Sequence record: PQ850613.1
Length of the DNA stretch: 64,000 bases
Source: Escherichia phage KarlSchell_Bas89
Reading direction: 5' to 3' (one strand)
Positions 52,657 through 59,912 of this stretch are shown here, piece by piece; position 1 is the stretch's first letter; each line of letters opens with the position of its first letter. Position numbers and translations under genes: made by a program. The notes below the pieces were generated by a model that did no database searches, was not told the DNA's origin, and saw only the letters and a program-made list of their open reading frames with translations.

Positions 52657-53874
52657 TTAAAAGTTTACTGCTTCACCATCAACGGTAGTTACTGATGCAA
52701 GACGACGAACACGGCCAATCTGTTCACGACTGATTGGAGTATTCCAACCAGAGCGATAGAAGTTGCGACCACAGAAGAACACAACAACATTAGAAGCAAT
52801 CCGTCCGTAGTTACGATCAGGGTGATTGATGTTAGCAAGATAATAACCACGGGTCAAGTTTGCATTTTCGTTGATATGCCGAGCATTTGGTGCAGTTGTT
52901 TCAGCTTGCATCATTTCAGGAACATCTTCTACGATAGGCTCAACCGTAGGTTCATCACCAGCTAAAGCAAAGTTCTCATCAGCAGCCTCTTCTGCATCAT
53001 CTTCCAGCTCCACAGTTTCCTGAATAACTGGCAGAGGGTATGCTACACGATACTCAGGGTTTTGACCACGGAGAGATTCAACATACTGCAAGAAGTTGTG
53101 CTGGTAAGTTTCCAGAGTTGTACCAGTCAGGCCCGGAGCGGTATTAACTTCTAACACCCACGCTTCCTCACCTTTACTGATAAGATCAACAGCACCAAAG
53201 TTAAGACCGAGTGCTTGTACTGCTTTGTGCGCTTGAATTAGAACCTGATCAGGTGGTGAATCATTAAAAGAGTTGGAATAAACCCAACCAGTGTGGTGAT
53301 TACGAACATCTTCACGATAGTCAGGGTTATCACGATACCCATTACGACGAATCTTCTTCTGGACGTAAGTAATAACACCTTCAAAAACATGCACACGCCA
53401 TTCACGACGTGGACCAGTGATTGCTTTTGTATACAGAGGAGCCTCAGCAACACCCTCACGAGGAAGACGAACAGTGATGCCTTCACCAGAGTGACCATTA
53501 AGTACACCACGTTCGTAAACAATACTGTTTTGGTTCCAGTTAAGTGCTTCATCTCGGTTAGTGGTATACTCAACAGTCTTGACTTCCGCAAGACGCATGG
53601 CATTGAAAGCTGCAACCTTGTTAGCCGCACGATTCAATGCTGCTACGTTGTTCAGAACCGTTGCACCTTCGAAGAAGGATTCTTGATAACGACGGTTTCC
53701 ATAGTTGATAATCACGTCACCAGAACGAGCACGGAATCGGCTGGTTCCATCAGACAGAAGAGTCATTGCGTTGGCATTGATTCGGTTGTCACGGAGATGT
53801 TGATTCAAGCTGGATACCAGAGCATTAACAGAATCAGAAGGGCCATAAGGGAGAACACGGATACGAGTAGTCAT
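52657..53874 (-). CDS. ATP-grasp ligase (RimK/GshB-like)
   Basis: 'FGAVDLISKGEEAWVLEVNTAPGLTG' matches the ATP-grasp C-terminal motif; acidic linker region. Confidence 0.7.
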   Translation of the reverse strand: MTTRIRVLPYGPSDSVNALVSSLNQHLRDNRINANAMTLLSDGTSRFRARSGDVIINYGNRRYQESFFEGATVLNNVAALNRAANKVAAFNAMRLAEVKTVEYTTNRDEALNWNQNSIVYERGVLNGHSGEGITVRLPREGVAEAPLYTKAITGPRREWRVHVFEGVITYVQKKIRRNGYRDNPDYREDVRNHHTGWVYSNSFNDSPPDQVLIQAHKAVQALGLNFGAVDLISKGEEAWVLEVNTAPGLTGTTLETYQHNFLQYVESLRGQNPEYRVAYPLPVIQETVELEDDAEEAADENFALAGDEPTVEPIVEDVPEMMQAETTAPNARHINENANLTRGYYLANINHPDRNYGRIASNVVVFFCGRNFYRSGWNTPISREQIGRVRRLASVTTVDGEAVNF

Positions 53875-54110: not shown

Positions 54111-54315
54111 CCTTGATACCTTTCAGTTTCACATAGTCAGCCAGCACGTTGTTAATAACTGTTGGGAAAGGAATCTCAACAGGTGCATTAACTAACCCAC
54201 CAATACCCTCTTGCATCCACTTCTGGATTGCACGAAGGTTATCACATCCTGTGCTTGTCATTGGAATACGGCGAGTGGTTACAACGTTATCCAACATCAT
54301 CTTACGAATTTCCAA
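54082..54315 (-). CDS. hypothetical protein
   Basis: 77-aa ORF. Confidence 0.3.
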   Translation of the reverse strand: MEIRKMMLDNVVTTRRIPMTSTGCDNLRAIQKWMQEGIGGLVNAPVEIPFPTVINNVLADYVKLKGIKVEPHVKQGN

Positions 54316-54811
54316 GGTACACCTCTACATTTTCATTTAGTTTAGCAAAAGATTTGTGATGAATAGGAGCTGCTTTATTGTAAGCATTTGCTGCATCTTC
54401 CTCGGTAGAAAACCTACCAAGATACAGAAGCTTACCATCAACTCGAATCCTCGCTTCCCATTTACCAGAATTGAAGTATATTCCTTTATACTTGGTATTT
54501 TTACCATTCATAACAGAACAGTTTCTACTATTTCCTGCTGCATCAGCTTCTCTAAGATTTTCGGGATGCTGATCATCTCGGATACCATTGATATGGTCTA
54601 CATATTTAGGAAGGTATCCATTATACATAAAGAAAGCTACCCTATGTGCTAGGTATGTCTTTCTTTTGAATCCGATTTGAATATACCCGCTATCTTTGTT
54701 TAGGCTTCCAGCAAAATCTCCAACTTGTTTCATCGGGGTAGGTTGTTTCCAATAGAGACTCCCCTCTTTATGTTCCAACCTAGATGCAAGCTCTATTAGT
54801 GTTTCATCCAC
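54302..54811 (-). CDS. HNH homing endonuclease with AP2-like domain, inserted inside the ligase cluster
   Basis: 'HRVAFFMYNGYLPKYVDHINGIRDDQHPENLR' plus 'KGIYFNSGKWEARIRVDGKLLYLGRFSTEEDAANAYN'. Confidence 0.8.
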   Translation of the reverse strand: MDETLIELASRLEHKEGSLYWKQPTPMKQVGDFAGSLNKDSGYIQIGFKRKTYLAHRVAFFMYNGYLPKYVDHINGIRDDQHPENLREADAAGNSRNCSVMNGKNTKYKGIYFNSGKWEARIRVDGKLLYLGRFSTEEDAANAYNKAAPIHHKSFAKLNENVEVYLGNS

Positions 54812-54821
54812 TCTACACCTC

Positions 54822-56840
54822 TTAATTATGACCTTTACAGTGCACTGAATCGCACACCACTTGATTGGTATTGTTTAGTGTGCAGAGTTCTGCATCACGC
54901 CACGGAATCTTTTTAAAACAGACTGCACAAAACCCAAGAGTAGACCAGAGGGCTTTTGTGAAGGTTGCTGATCGGTTTCCATCGAAGGACGCAACTGTTC
55001 TGGTAATTGAGACTTTTGACTCACGAAAGGTTTCCGCTGCTGGAGCGGGTTCCTCCTTTGGGGTAGTCACTGCAATAGCATAAACACCACCCCAACGCTT
55101 CTCAATGTAAGCACCGAACACATCTTCCAGAGTGATTTCACTCTTACGTTTGGTTGAGGATTCCATGACAATCATGTTGTCCAGAATCTTTTGATCAACA
55201 CGAAGAGCTACTTCAGGACGTCGAGCACTTGTTGTATCAACATACTTGGTCCAAACATAACCCTCTTTCAGAGTGACTTGAGTTGCTTGCTTCTTTGCTT
55301 TATTAGCACAGATTTTACAAACATCGTCACTACGAAGTTTACTGAACTCTTCATCAAATTCAAAGTCAGACTTCACTTCGCCGCACACTGAACAAACGCC
55401 GATAGGAATCTCATCCTCTTCAACGTCTTCCACTTGCTTCTGGATAGAGTCAAAACAAGCTTTATGCCAATATGCTTGGTATGCGAAGATCGCACTTGGT
55501 GCTTCTTTCCAGTCGATGTGCTTATCACAGCCACCACAATCACCGTGGGAATGGGCTTCCCAGAACTTACGAGTGATAGTCACCCCATTCTTGCTGACAA
55601 AACTATCCTCTGCGTCAAAAGGGATATCATCATCGAAATCAGCAGTAGTGCTTTCCGGCTCCTTTTTCGACAAATCAAAGAAGTGACCAGAGATTAACAC
55701 CAGACGAATCATGCTATTAACTTCAGAGATACAGCCAACCGTACCACGGTAAACCATATGCTTGTTCTTAAGAGCAGCTTCATAATCAGTTTGCAGGATG
55801 TTATGAACATCACCCTCAATATACTCTTGAGCTTTGTCATCATAAATATAACCAACCATCTTACCGCGATCGGTATCTTTATAACAAACAAACTCATGAG
55901 GAATAATATCAACCTGCATATCACGACGGATATCAACACCTTTGTCAGAGGCGATCTTGTTTTGTTTCAAGATTGCTTCACGACGACGTACATCACCTGC
56001 GGTTACGCCGGGCTTTCTTTGCTCGTCGCTGTTCCCGTTTAAGTAACTTTTTACTACGCTTGAGTGGTTGTTGCTGTAGCTGTTCGAGTAATAACTGCCC
56101 CAACGCGTTGCTACCGTAAAAACCGGGAGTTCATGTACGACCTCCTCTACCAAAGTCATCTTGTTGTCAGAAACATCAAAGATGTACTCTGTACCGACCT
56201 TACACTCAAAGTGCTCATCAATTCGGTTCTTGTGGCTCTTAGAACGCTGAAGAATCCACATCAACATCGCTTCTTCTGAAGCACCAAACCATGAAGTTCC
56301 CAGACGGGCCAGATGGAATGGACGCTCATCGTTGCGAATGATGTGAAGACGGTTATCACTTGCATCATGCCAGATCAGAGTGAATGCACCATCCAACTTC
56401 TGAATAGTCTCTGCTGCACCAATCTTGTTAATAGAGTGGCAGATATTCTCACTATCAACTTCAAAAGCCTTACTGTCAGGCAGGAGGTCTTGATCAACTA
56501 GGGTTCCGTTATGAACCAGAGTGATGTTTCCGTGAGAGAATGGGTGAGCGTTACGTGAGTTAATAGCGCCTTTCGTAGCATGTCGGCTGTGACCAACAAT
56601 CCATGAAGGAGGCACTGTGTAATTAGTAAGGCCAGTTGTCAGCTCGGTGTACTCTTTCTGTAACATGAAAGCATAGGAAGGCAGTGCTTCTTTATAAGAG
56701 AACACAGATCTTTCGCTTTTACGCTGACCGAAAATACCAGTTGAGTGTTGACCACGAAATACACCAGCGTAGAGAAGCTGGTTGTAAATATCTAAGTCAT
56801 AACTTGAGAGGCTTCCACCTGCTAATACGATACCACAAAT
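54822..56840 (-). CDS. class-II (Ntn) glutamine amidotransferase-domain protein with a long Cys-rich C-terminal region; predicted AUU start directly before the catalytic Cys
   Basis: In-frame 'CGIVLAGG...RGQHSTG...GHSRHATKGAINSRNAHPF...LVHNGTL' lies upstream of the track GTG start; frame reads TAG-AAA-ATT-TGT with SD AGGTGGA 7 nt before ATT. Confidence 0.65.
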   Translation of the reverse strand: MCGIVLAGGSLSSYDLDIYNQLLYAGVFRGQHSTGIFGQRKSERSVFSYKEALPSYAFMLQKEYTELTTGLTNYTVPPSWIVGHSRHATKGAINSRNAHPFSHGNITLVHNGTLVDQDLLPDSKAFEVDSENICHSINKIGAAETIQKLDGAFTLIWHDASDNRLHIIRNDERPFHLARLGTSWFGASEEAMLMWILQRSKSHKNRIDEHFECKVGTEYIFDVSDNKMTLVEEVVHELPVFTVATRWGSYYSNSYSNNHSSVVKSYLNGNSDEQRKPGVTAGDVRRREAILKQNKIASDKGVDIRRDMQVDIIPHEFVCYKDTDRGKMVGYIYDDKAQEYIEGDVHNILQTDYEAALKNKHMVYRGTVGCISEVNSMIRLVLISGHFFDLSKKEPESTTADFDDDIPFDAEDSFVSKNGVTITRKFWEAHSHGDCGGCDKHIDWKEAPSAIFAYQAYWHKACFDSIQKQVEDVEEDEIPIGVCSVCGEVKSDFEFDEEFSKLRSDDVCKICANKAKKQATQVTLKEGYVWTKYVDTTSARRPEVALRVDQKILDNMIVMESSTKRKSEITLEDVFGAYIEKRWGGVYAIAVTTPKEEPAPAAETFRESKVSITRTVASFDGNRSATFTKALWSTLGFCAVCFKKIPWRDAELCTLNNTNQVVCDSVHCKGHN

Positions 56841-56914
56841 TTTCTAATCCACCTGAAGGGTAAACCCTTTCATCTAATTAACCTTTAGTTGTGCCCCTTT
56901 CGAGGCACCCATTG

Positions 56915-58015
56915 TTACAGCAGTCGTTCTAACTGAATTTCCAAGTGATCTGGAATATACTCAGTGACGTTGTTATCGGAGACGCCAGATTCACGCATCA
57001 TGTTGAGCATGTTACGAATCTGCCCTTCTGTTGCTTCACGAGCTTCGCTGATCTCTGATTCATAGAGGGACATAATCTCGTCATGAACATCTGGAGCGTT
57101 ACCTCGAACATATCCGAGGAAGCCGTAGAAGTCAGACATATCACGAAGAGATACAACTACGGACCCACTATTATCAAGAGTTTGTAAACGAATACGCCCA
57201 ACCTGACGTACAGAACGGTTACGACAGAACAGGATATCACGAGCCAGACGATAACCACTATCAAGATCTTCGTGTCTTGGTGAATAATCCAGAGGTAGGT
57301 GAGGTAGCATAGGTTCAAAACGAACCCTGTTAAGCATCTCAACAAACTCTTCATTGTCAAGCTCTGCATTCTCAACTGCTAATTTCTTGAGAACCAAGAA
57401 GCGATTTACCAGATTTAACAGCTGACCTTTCTTCCACTTAGGCTCTGAGATACGGAACTCAACAGAACCGAACTGAGCCAGAGGAAGTAGATTAAGTGAT
57501 GTATACTTATCCCAACGATCAACAATATGTCGGAAGAAGTTCTCACCTTCGTAGTTAAACGCTTCAGAGGCATTCATTACTTGAGCCTGAACCACTGCAA
57601 ACGCAGGACAGAAATTACTACGGTAACGGTGATAACCAGAGCACTTAAACATCAATGCTTCATAGAAAGTCCACCCAAGGATAACTTTCTTAACGATGTT
57701 GCTATCAGCATCTCGCATATCCATATGAACGTGAGTGGAACAGCGCCAAGTCCCTTCTGCTTCGGACTCCATCACTGCCTCACTCAGATTGTTGATAGCG
57801 TCAAACAGTTCTACACCATTGTAAGGGCGAGAACAGACCATTTCACATCCGTTGCGAAGCGAGCCGTCCTCTGTACATTCCCACATATCTGCTTCGATAT
57901 GATCGTCACCTTCAAGCTCCAGCTCAATACCAATACCACATTGGAATGCGATACTCGGATGTTCTTCACTCAGACGATTACTACGGTATCCAAAAGCTTG
58001 CGCTACAGTTGTCAT
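56915..58015 (-). CDS. carboxylate-amine ligase (glutamine-synthetase fold, GCS2/YbdK-like)
   Basis: N-terminal 'GIGIELELEGDD' resembles the GCS2 'GVELE' motif; 'STHVHMDM'; 366 aa. Confidence 0.5.
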   Translation of the reverse strand: MTTVAQAFGYRSNRLSEEHPSIAFQCGIGIELELEGDDHIEADMWECTEDGSLRNGCEMVCSRPYNGVELFDAINNLSEAVMESEAEGTWRCSTHVHMDMRDADSNIVKKVILGWTFYEALMFKCSGYHRYRSNFCPAFAVVQAQVMNASEAFNYEGENFFRHIVDRWDKYTSLNLLPLAQFGSVEFRISEPKWKKGQLLNLVNRFLVLKKLAVENAELDNEEFVEMLNRVRFEPMLPHLPLDYSPRHEDLDSGYRLARDILFCRNRSVRQVGRIRLQTLDNSGSVVVSLRDMSDFYGFLGYVRGNAPDVHDEIMSLYESEISEAREATEGQIRNMLNMMRESGVSDNNVTEYIPDHLEIQLERLL

Positions 58016-58635: not shown

Positions 58636-59445
58636 TTACGCTACCTGTAAACGTTTCAAGAACACACCTGCTTCACGAACATCATTGGTGTTGATGATCT
58701 GGTGCAGCTTTTCAATCGGAAGGCGAGAGTGGAGGCTCATCAAGAACTCCATGTCGCTGTTTTGTACAACCTTGTCAACTTGATCATACACAAATTGACG
58801 ATCTTCTTTCTTGCCAATCCAGAAGTTCGACAGAGATCGATACTCAATACCGTAAGGTTTGTAACGGATTGCGGATGCTTTACCGTACAGCTCTTTACGA
58901 CGAGTATCACCGTCCATCAGAACAGCAGGCAATGACAGGAAGTAATCACACAGAACGCCCAGCATCATCTGAACCTTCTTATTCACATCCAGAGAGCCAG
59001 TGACACCAATGTGCACATGACCACCTGCTGTACGCAAGCCCTTGTTCTCTGAAGTTGGAGAAGCATTCTTTTGACCGGTGAATGCGTTGAAGTCTGGAGT
59101 ACAACCAAACACGAAAGCGGACGGATGGAATGATTCCAATTCTTCTTTAGAGAAGATATGAGAGCTTACACCCAGAGCCGCTTCCATGTCCTGTTTCTTC
59201 AGCACTTCATTGGTAAGATCAATACCGCGCTGAACGTTGTCATTAAACGCTTCAAAACCTTGTTGTGGGTTGATATCAAACTCAGCCAGCACGTTGTCTT
59301 CTTGGAGACGTACATCCTTAGCCAGATCGATTTTATTTTCTTTAGAACAACCCAGCTTGCCAGCAACAGAGGTGATGATGCCAGAAGAAGTACGAACAAA
59401 CATCTCTGGGTCCGTCCCAATTAAAAATACACGTTTAGTAGTCAT
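58636..59445 (-). CDS. possible second amidoligase-like protein
   Basis: 'GGHVHIGV' HxH-type motif and ~270-aa size; weak by-eye resemblance only. Confidence 0.3.
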   Translation of the reverse strand: MTTKRVFLIGTDPEMFVRTSSGIITSVAGKLGCSKENKIDLAKDVRLQEDNVLAEFDINPQQGFEAFNDNVQRGIDLTNEVLKKQDMEAALGVSSHIFSKEELESFHPSAFVFGCTPDFNAFTGQKNASPTSENKGLRTAGGHVHIGVTGSLDVNKKVQMMLGVLCDYFLSLPAVLMDGDTRRKELYGKASAIRYKPYGIEYRSLSNFWIGKKEDRQFVYDQVDKVVQNSDMEFLMSLHSRLPIEKLHQIINTNDVREAGVFLKRLQVA

Positions 59446-59912
59446 GCTTTAGTCCAACCTTTATGAGATAGATAGTTTTTAAACCTGCCACTGTGAACAG
59501 CTCCCATGTGGCCGGGATGTAAGTTGTTATTTCTACAGAAGTCTTTGAGGTTATATATTTTAACAACCCTTCCTTCTGGAGATTTAAACTTCCAAAATCT
59601 AGCATTCCCTTTCACAGCATTATCTTTGCTGGATAGAAGTTGGAAATTGGTGAGACGGTTATTAGTTTTATCACCATCTATGTGGTCAACTGTCATGCCC
59701 TCAGGTATCGGGCCTATAAACAACTCCCACAAGAGCCTGTGTACCAGAAAATTTCTTGTAATCTTTTCCGGAGCTTGAATGGCAACAAACCTTAAATAGC
59801 CATCTTTATCAGGGAATGTTTTCCTACATTTCCCTGTTTTTGCATTAATGATTCTACCGTTTTCAAATACCCGAAAAGTAGAAACACCAACTACTAACTC
59901 TCTGTAGTCCAT
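59442..59912 (-). CDS. HNH homing endonuclease
   Basis: 'HRLLWELFIGPIPEGMTVDHIDGDKTNNRLTNFQLL'. Confidence 0.75.
   Translation of the reverse strand: MDYRELVVGVSTFRVFENGRIINAKTGKCRKTFPDKDGYLRFVAIQAPEKITRNFLVHRLLWELFIGPIPEGMTVDHIDGDKTNNRLTNFQLLSSKDNAVKGNARFWKFKSPEGRVVKIYNLKDFCRNNNLHPGHMGAVHSGRFKNYLSHKGWTKA

Follow-up and report, generated by a model that had tools for sequence, protein, structure and literature searches.

A gene for a class-II (N-terminal nucleophile, Ntn) glutamine amidotransferase in Escherichia phage KarlSchell_Bas89 (PQ850613.1) very probably starts with an AUU codon that stands directly before the codon of its catalytic cysteine. We analysed a 64,000-nucleotide (nt) stretch of this record (the window), in which the gene and its leader lie on the minus strand. 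Its sequence indicates that translation would begin at AUU 56840-56838 and that removal of the initiator methionine would then expose Cys1. Non-canonical AUU initiation had been proposed in a preliminary description made from the letters of the window alone, and the proposal is now supported by the homology of Cys1, the absence of other starts in the interval before it, a coding signature in the codons that follow, conservation, and the position of the start in homologues.

AUU is the sole near-cognate start codon before the cysteine codon

The coding sequence (CDS) of the amidotransferase, as delimited by Pfam and annotated orthologues, extends from the ATT to the stop codon at 54822..56840 on the minus strand (672 codons plus stop, 671 residues from Cys1). 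Read on that strand, the start region consists of the TAA of an upstream amidoligase gene, a first hairpin, an ATG at 56873, a second hairpin, the Shine-Dalgarno (SD)-like sequence AGGTGGA (56848..56854), the stretch TTAGAAA, the proposed initiation codon ATT (56838..56840) and TGT (56835..56837), the codon of Cys1. TGT is followed by GGT ATC GTA TTA GCA GGT GGA; the translation reads *-K-I-C-G-I-V-L-A-G-G and remains open to 54822. The 7 nt of TTAGAAA, which separate AGGTGGA from ATT, hold an in-frame TAG two codons before ATT (56844..56846), which bars any N-terminally extended product, and an AAA codon (56841-56843). We sought ATG, GTG and TTG between this TAG and the Cys codon and found none. 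The interval consists of AAA and ATT alone, and ATT is therefore the only near-cognate initiation codon available.

The preliminary description was accurate on each of these points. The minus-strand read and the translation agree that only AAA and ATT lie between TAG and Cys, AGGTGGA does end 7 nt upstream of ATT (56854-56848), and both of the small hairpins that it had placed before the site were found (56908-56891 and 56869-56856). The GGTGG core of the SD ends 8 nt before ATT and has an anti-SD duplex energy of -7.2 kcal/mol. The GTG at 56703..56705, which is the start in a mechanical list of open reading frames (ORFs) and in the annotation of phage KBNP1711, would here be an internal codon, Val45 counted from Cys. 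The same GAT TAG AAA ATT TGT layout is present in three distant loci (L106, L107 and L159).

The cysteine aligns with residue 1 of GlmS and PurF

The product scored 53.2 bits against the Pfam model GATase_6 (cut-off 27) and 28.6 bits against GATase_7 (cut-off 25). Because the Pfam GATase models stop short of the N-terminus, Cys1 could not be placed by Pfam alone and a homologue profile was used. A search of the PDB with the single sequence, in which the query ran from Gly2 on, gave no match. We gathered 54 homologues and aligned 36 of them to obtain a profile for comparison with solved structures. Most of the 54 begin MCG[IL]V, and the ATG-started members of the amidotransferase family all begin directly with MC(G). 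Invariant positions in the 36-sequence alignment were C1, G2, R28, G29, G34, H83, R85, T88, G90, H98, P99, F100, H109, N110, G111, D128 and S129, and the conserved glutaminase motifs RG..S.G, H.R.AT.G...N.HP, HNG (with the oxyanion Asn-Gly) and DSE are present.

The 36-homologue profile matched GlmS and PurF structures with E values from 3e-21 to 6e-14, and the phage Cys was aligned to residue 1 of the mature chains of GlmS (1xff, which reads CGIVG..., 1jxa and 4amv) and PurF (1ecb and 1ao0). The CGIV segment is therefore the conserved Ntn nucleophile segment. This is where the preliminary description had put the catalytic N-terminus (CGIVLAGG), upstream of the listed ORF start; the Cys codon lies 132 nt upstream of GTG 56705, and the contrary alignment that the description had named, with CGIV outside the conserved catalytic N-terminus, was not obtained. 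By these sequence matches the gene product is assigned to the class-II (Ntn) glutamine amidotransferases, with a predicted glutaminase activity located in an N-terminal domain of ~250 residues (56085..56837, minus strand), which was delimited from Pfam, the alignment and the structure profile.

An invariant leader gives way to coding sequence at the cysteine codon

Over this region, the window shares 97-98% identity with Escherichia phages EP335 and KBNP1711, which are phiEco32-like podophages of the Gordonclarkvirinae, and other Gordonclarkvirinae genera have ~74% nucleotide identity to the window in the gene body. All of the 96 related phage records carry a leader of 55-56 nt, ATT TGT GG included, with an identity of 99% or more (100% in the 12 records listed), and the ATT is present in every one, while identity in the gene body goes down to 74%; conservation of this kind exceeds what chance would give. 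In codons 1-44, by comparison with phiEco32 and SU7, third positions account for 26 of 38 and 21 of 34 differences, respectively, and the codon changes comprise 14-19 synonymous and 9 non-synonymous ones. Since the leader is invariant and codons 1-44 are variable at third positions, constraint switches from non-coding to coding exactly at TGT. This pattern supports translation of the 44 codons that lie upstream of the listed GTG. The AUU is conserved in the orthologues despite a one-step path to AUG, which indicates that the start is under selection.

A CDS is annotated from the same ATT in the type phage phiEco32 (phi32_83, complement 54493..56523), SU10 (SU10_085), LAMP (gp83) and Bas87 (Bas87_0079). 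These are orthologues with an identical 56-nt leader that are known as annotations, so the ATT start already stands in public phiEco32-group annotation and the bare finding is not new. The CDS annotated in EP335, KBNP1711, SU7 and EK010 is N-terminally shortened. For SU10, mass spectrometry identified the protein from 9 peptides, its N-terminus not being given (PMC4281155). In the searchable full text, which did not reach the original phiEco32 description, we found no discussion of an AUU or ATT start for this amidotransferase gene, nor any account of a family-wide pattern of AUU/AUC starts. What is added here is the correction for Bas89 and its nearest relatives, the selection on the start and the family-wide architecture of hairpin, SD and AUU/AUC.

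Probable AUU and AUC starts recur in distant phage homologues

Among the 80 best relatives in IMG/VR (30-64% identity), the codon before Cys was ATG in 72, ATT in 5, ATC in 2 and TTG in 1, and we estimate from the sequences that ATT or ATC precedes Cys in about 10-15% of distant homologues or phage lineages. More than 20 separate loci have ATT or ATC at the homologous position together with a strong SD. When seven homologues that had been called without the Cys were checked, five had a hidden ATT (P0028, P0034, P0041, P0047 and P0052), and an eighth shortened call, P0013, corresponds to the ATT locus L008/L045. The notion that all shortened gene calls hide non-canonical starts was ruled out by the other two of the seven, P0014 and P0044, where an ATG had been overlooked.

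An in-frame upstream stop followed by no canonical start was found in 12 of 14 ATT/ATC loci, and the ORFs of the ATT/ATC loci are all intact, with 366-676 residues. In a neighbour-joining tree, 16 ATT/ATC loci fall in ~7 places or clades, some of them deep. The deep ATT clades indicate that ATT has been kept over long periods, though a single T-to-G change gives ATG.

Vibrio phage VPp1 (L390, KJ936628, gp48) has an ATT start, and its amidotransferase is annotated 160 nt too short; its layout is the hairpin CCCAGC-GU-GCUGGG, then AAGGTGA, 6 nt and ATT TGT. IME271, VpJYP1 and other related Vibrio phages probably have the same layout. In three IMG/VR loci (L122, L138 and L154), another class-II amidotransferase-like gene of 226 residues (CGIFGAKDFT...) starts with GGAGGAT-AATATT-ATT-TGT, and ATT starts may thus extend beyond this one family. 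A sister lineage (L009, a contig of Logan SRR34434937, protein P0003) reads TAG GTG ACT AAA ATT TGT.

ATT and ATC starts share a strong SD, a fixed spacer and a hairpin

Loci with ATT or ATC differ from ATG loci in their SD: the median anti-SD duplex was -9.45 kcal/mol for the former and -6.15 kcal/mol for the latter (Mann-Whitney p = 3e-5; this and the following tests treat related loci as independent). The SD of ATT/ATC loci is typically GGAGGAT, and in 12 of 16 the end of the GGAGG core is separated from the start by 8 nt. The pattern GGAGGAT-N6-ATT-TGTGG retrieved 12 family genes from IMG/VR, and its ATG version retrieved one.

A compact perfect hairpin lies directly 5' of the SD in 18 of 23 ATT/ATC loci (23 being the later non-redundant total) as against 1 of 60 ATG loci. 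It has a stem of 5-7 base pairs (bp) and a loop of 3-5 nt, and its 3' end is 14-16 nt before the start codon. When the comparison was confined to loci separated from the upstream gene by 20 nt or more, the counts were 15 of 19 for ATT/ATC and 0 of 10 for ATG (Fisher p = 5e-5), and shuffling of the upstream 30 nt gave a combined hairpin p of 1e-10. The stem sequences are unrelated between lineages. The hairpin was no criterion in the SD/ATT pattern, and most of the eight new loci that this pattern alone retrieved carry it too. Hairpin 2 of the window is this SD-adjacent element. SD strength, spacing and the hairpin are associated with ATT/ATC starts. The gap to the upstream ORF also differs: ATG versions abut or overlap it (median 1 nt), whereas the median for ATT/ATC is 62 nt (p = 2e-8). 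A scan of cellular genomes with the ATT module gave one family member among the 120 matches listed, from which the AUU design looks phage-specific.

The leader of the phiEco32 group appears remodelled

Hairpin 1 of the window, GUGCCUC-GAAA-GGGGCAC, is a predicted fold just past the amidoligase stop. Its stem covaries by compensatory changes, GUGCC/GGCAC versus GCGC/GCGC, in SU7, ECBP2 and Bas87, with variable loops (side loci L003, L098 and L103), and Cronobacter phage A24 has GGGGC-GAAA-GCCCC at this position. With no U-tract after its stem, hairpin 1 does not qualify as a classical intrinsic terminator. It probably acts as an RNA element between the two cistrons, for instance as a terminator of another kind, a processing site or a stabiliser. 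Hairpin 2, AAGGG-UUUA-CCCUU, is also predicted; it is located directly 5' of the SD and its 3' end is 16 nt before ATT. The fold of the whole 121-nt leader is no more stable than those of shuffled sequences (z = -0.63), and in this leader the local hairpins alone matter, not the global fold.

The leader also contains a mini-ORF, ATG AAA GGG TTT ACC CTT CAG GTG GAT TAG (MKGFTLQVD*, 56844..56873, minus strand), which is in frame with the gene, has 9 codons and ends 3 nt before ATT. By its sequence it is probably not a functional gene. Its ATG lies in the motif TAGATGAAAGG (window 56865-56880), which is common to phage A24 (L392). In A24, the ATG of the shared motif does not lie in the frame of the amidotransferase, and the SD, 7 nt before an ATG start, is AAAGGA. 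The phiEco32 group has ~17 extra nt after the shared motif, and these make hairpin 2, a new SD and the ATT. The comparison suggests that the start region has been remodelled, with the former SD AAAGG now placed within the 5' arm of hairpin 2.

We looked in the window leader for a promoter of the phiEco32 gp36 type (consensus tAATGTAtA, PMC8948821), which was absent; a scan for sigma-70 promoters and terminators gave nothing relevant on the strand of the gene, and an Rfam search with the leader returned no family. In the ATG-type relatives L012-L017 and L392, AAATGTAAA or AATGTAAAT is present ~20-30 nt before ATG and resembles the gp36 promoter consensus.

Proposed initiation at AUU and its alternatives

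In bacteria, fMet-tRNA reads whatever codon serves as the start, and the initiator Met is expected to be cleaved off where the second residue is small or permissive, such as Cys. An AUU start with UGU next to it would therefore yield the required Cys1. In the mechanism that we propose, the 30S subunit would be anchored by the GGUGG SD 8 nt upstream and the initiator fMet-tRNA would decode AUU. Deformylase and methionine aminopeptidase would then take off Met, Cys being a small second residue, and Cys1 with its free alpha-amino group would act as the Ntn nucleophile.

In E. coli, initiation factor 3 (IF3) discriminates against AUU. The codons AUU, AUC, AUA and CUG initiate there at ~1-2% of the level of AUG (bioRxiv 10.1101/063800). 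The weakness of the codon is most plausibly offset by the strong SD. Where start codons overlap, SD spacing picks the codon that is used, and long spacers favour the 5' codon (Kohl et al., PMC9841429); the long, fixed 8-nt spacer most plausibly brings AUU just within the far limit of the P-site window, with UUG (+2) and GUG (+4) out of reach. For the hairpin that abuts the SD, the most plausible role is to insulate or stabilise the helix between SD and anti-SD, to stack on it or to lock its register; it may instead be a protein-binding translational operator. We infer that the purpose of such a start could be low or IF3-sensitive expression.

Several observations weigh against this interpretation. 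The SD of the window (GGUGG, -7.2 kcal/mol) is weaker than the SDs of the other ATT lineages. Better start codons, UUG and GUG, lie out of frame 2 and 4 nt downstream in AUUUGUGG, where they would give 13- and 4-codon peptides in the window, and they may capture many ribosomes. As the in-frame mini-ORF ends 3 nt before AUU, initiation could partly be reinitiation. In the sister lineage L009, the GTG three codons upstream could give a four-residue propeptide (MTKI-C); alternatively, this GTG is part of an AGGTGA SD 5 nt before ATT. Finally, the loci that were compared are related and form ~7 clades on the tree, so the p-values given above are optimistic and the effective sample size is below 23.

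Termination-reinitiation, with ribosomes translating the mini-ORF from ATG 56873 to TAG 56844 and restarting on the AUU 3 nt on, would make use of AUU dependent on coupling instead of de novo 30S binding. The ATG of the mini-ORF does have AAAGG 8 nt upstream of it, the stop is 3 nt from ATT, and the whole block is invariant in the 96 records, but we consider this route unlikely. Most of the other ATT/ATC lineages have no comparable upstream ORF that ends beside the start. The homologous motif of A24, TAGATGAAAGGA, supplies the SD region for a gene that starts with ATG, and the ATG inside the motif is in another frame there; the mini-ORF thus looks like a by-product. An autonomous start region is also favoured by the hairpin and by the presence of a dedicated SD at 8 nt.

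It is very improbable that translation begins at a downstream canonical codon, either GTG 56705 or an internal ATG, as is annotated in EP335, KBNP1711, SU7 and EK010. Gene callers and several GenBank/RefSeq records do take downstream starts, but Cys1 would then be lost and CGIV left untranslated. The 44 upstream codons carry both third-position-biased substitutions and catalytic motifs (C1, G2, R28 and G29), no SD precedes GTG 56705, and the homologues that use ATG all start MCG, whereas a product from a downstream start would have no nucleophile.

Some Ntn amidotransferases undergo propeptide processing. Read-through of the TAG from the in-frame ATG 33 nt upstream could provide a 12-residue propeptide (MKGFTLQVD-X-KI) that is removed autocatalytically, as in Bacillus subtilis PurF, and in one locus (L047) the frame is indeed open from an ATG at -33 to Cys. 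In the window, however, the TAG parts the only upstream ATG from Cys1, in contrast to a propeptide of the B. subtilis PurF or GltB type, and read-through would need amber suppression in ordinary E. coli hosts. With 12 of 14 ATT/ATC lineages lacking any in-frame canonical start and the ATG members beginning directly with MC, we give this possibility even less weight than a downstream start. A decaying pseudogene, or an ATT that is a sequencing or assembly error for the ATG one base away, is effectively refuted, as 96 phages that were sequenced independently all have the ATT, which recurs in more than 20 other lineages with intact ORFs, and the protein was detected in SU10.

The loci L045 and L106 had also brought up a -1 frameshift from an ATG in the +1 frame. 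This candidate was rejected: the window has no start in that frame upstream of the site, where a TGA is followed by no ATG, GTG or TTG, and the sole +1-frame start is the GTG at +4 (a 4-codon ORF). At L045 itself, the ATG abuts the SD with zero spacing.

For the family as a whole, we propose, tentatively and with more doubt than confidence, that hairpin-GGAGG-8 nt-AUU/AUC-UGU would be a distinct, selected class of start region, which roughly 10-15% of phage Ntn-amidotransferase lineages would have kept for long periods in place of an AUG start with coupling to the gene upstream. The near-cognate codon would give IF3-sensitive or regulated low synthesis, and the hairpin would be functional in the selection of a non-AUG start by helix stacking, by register locking or as a translational operator. 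If true, no other known natural collection of unambiguous AUU/AUC starts in bacteria-type translation would come near it in size.

Comparison with known AUU starts and phage operators

Genes with a confirmed AUU start are extremely rare; for E. coli there are just two, infC and pcnB (bioRxiv 10.1101/063800). The infC gene of E. coli K-12, which encodes IF3, has GGAGG-AATAAGGT-ATT with an 8-nt spacer and in this resembles the GGAGG-AT-N6-ATT of the phage family; the SD of the window is GGUGG where that of infC is GGAGG. The AUU of infC differs in that it serves IF3 autoregulation, and no such loop is evident for the phage amidotransferase. Reading by eye the 60 nt before the ATT of infC, to which the hairpin search was not applied, we saw no SD-adjacent hairpin. 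The E. coli poly(A) polymerase gene pcnB likewise has an AUU start with a GAGGTG-type SD, and its AUU is thought to keep expression low. Unlike the phage gene, pcnB is a cellular gene with a shorter spacer (GAGGTG-TACT-ATT) and no constraint from an N-terminal catalytic residue.

The cellular genes glmS, purF, asnB and yafJ encode the same fold, with Cys after the initiator Met and a start that overlaps out-of-frame starts, but they use AUG. These Met-Cys genes are the AUGUG cases of an earlier study (PMC9841429). Phage translational operators offer a further parallel to the hairpin. In operators of this type, such as that of T4 gene 43, a small hairpin likewise stands next to the SD, directly 5' of the site where the ribosome binds the phage message. 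In the amidotransferase family, by contrast, no loop or stem sequence is common between lineages, and the hairpin tracks the type of start codon.

Non-canonical starts usually escape notice, since gene callers shift the start to whichever canonical codon is nearest. Here the obligatory Met-Cys N-terminus pins the start, so that non-canonical starts can be read unambiguously from sequence. The gene is mis-annotated without its nucleophile in EP335, KBNP1711, SU7, EK010, Vibrio phage VPp1 and many metagenomic calls, and correction is due. The family provides more than 20 natural AUU/AUC start regions with a common architecture, alongside sister lineages on ordinary, translationally coupled AUG. 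It is thus a comparative system for how ribosomes reach a weak codon that has stronger ones out of frame on its flanks, and for the reason why such a design would be selected in a phage.

Genomic setting of the amidotransferase gene

The amidotransferase gene is a fusion that belongs to a cluster of the phiEco32 type, in which it is accompanied by Amidoligase_2, COOH-NH2 ligase and ATP-grasp genes. The upstream gene of the Amidoligase_2 family (PF12224) is at 56915..58015 (minus strand), and its TAA (56917-56915) lies 74 nt before ATT. The COOH-NH2 ligase gene (PF14395) is at 58636-59445 on the same strand. The downstream ATP-grasp gene is so named solely in the annotations of relatives: the 405-residue ORF at 52657-53874 (minus strand), ATP-grasp or RimK-like in those annotations, had no Pfam match at E <= 0.001.

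A 169-residue ORF with HNH_3 and AP2 domains (54302-54811, minus strand) lies 10 nt past the amidotransferase stop. Homology to EP335 and KBNP1711 stops at 54814, and both of these phages have a small hypothetical gene there instead; the ORF is probably a homing-endonuclease insertion specific to Bas89. A second HNH_3 endonuclease ORF (156 residues, 59442-59912, minus strand) is located directly upstream of the COOH-NH2 ligase gene, with a 4-nt overlap.

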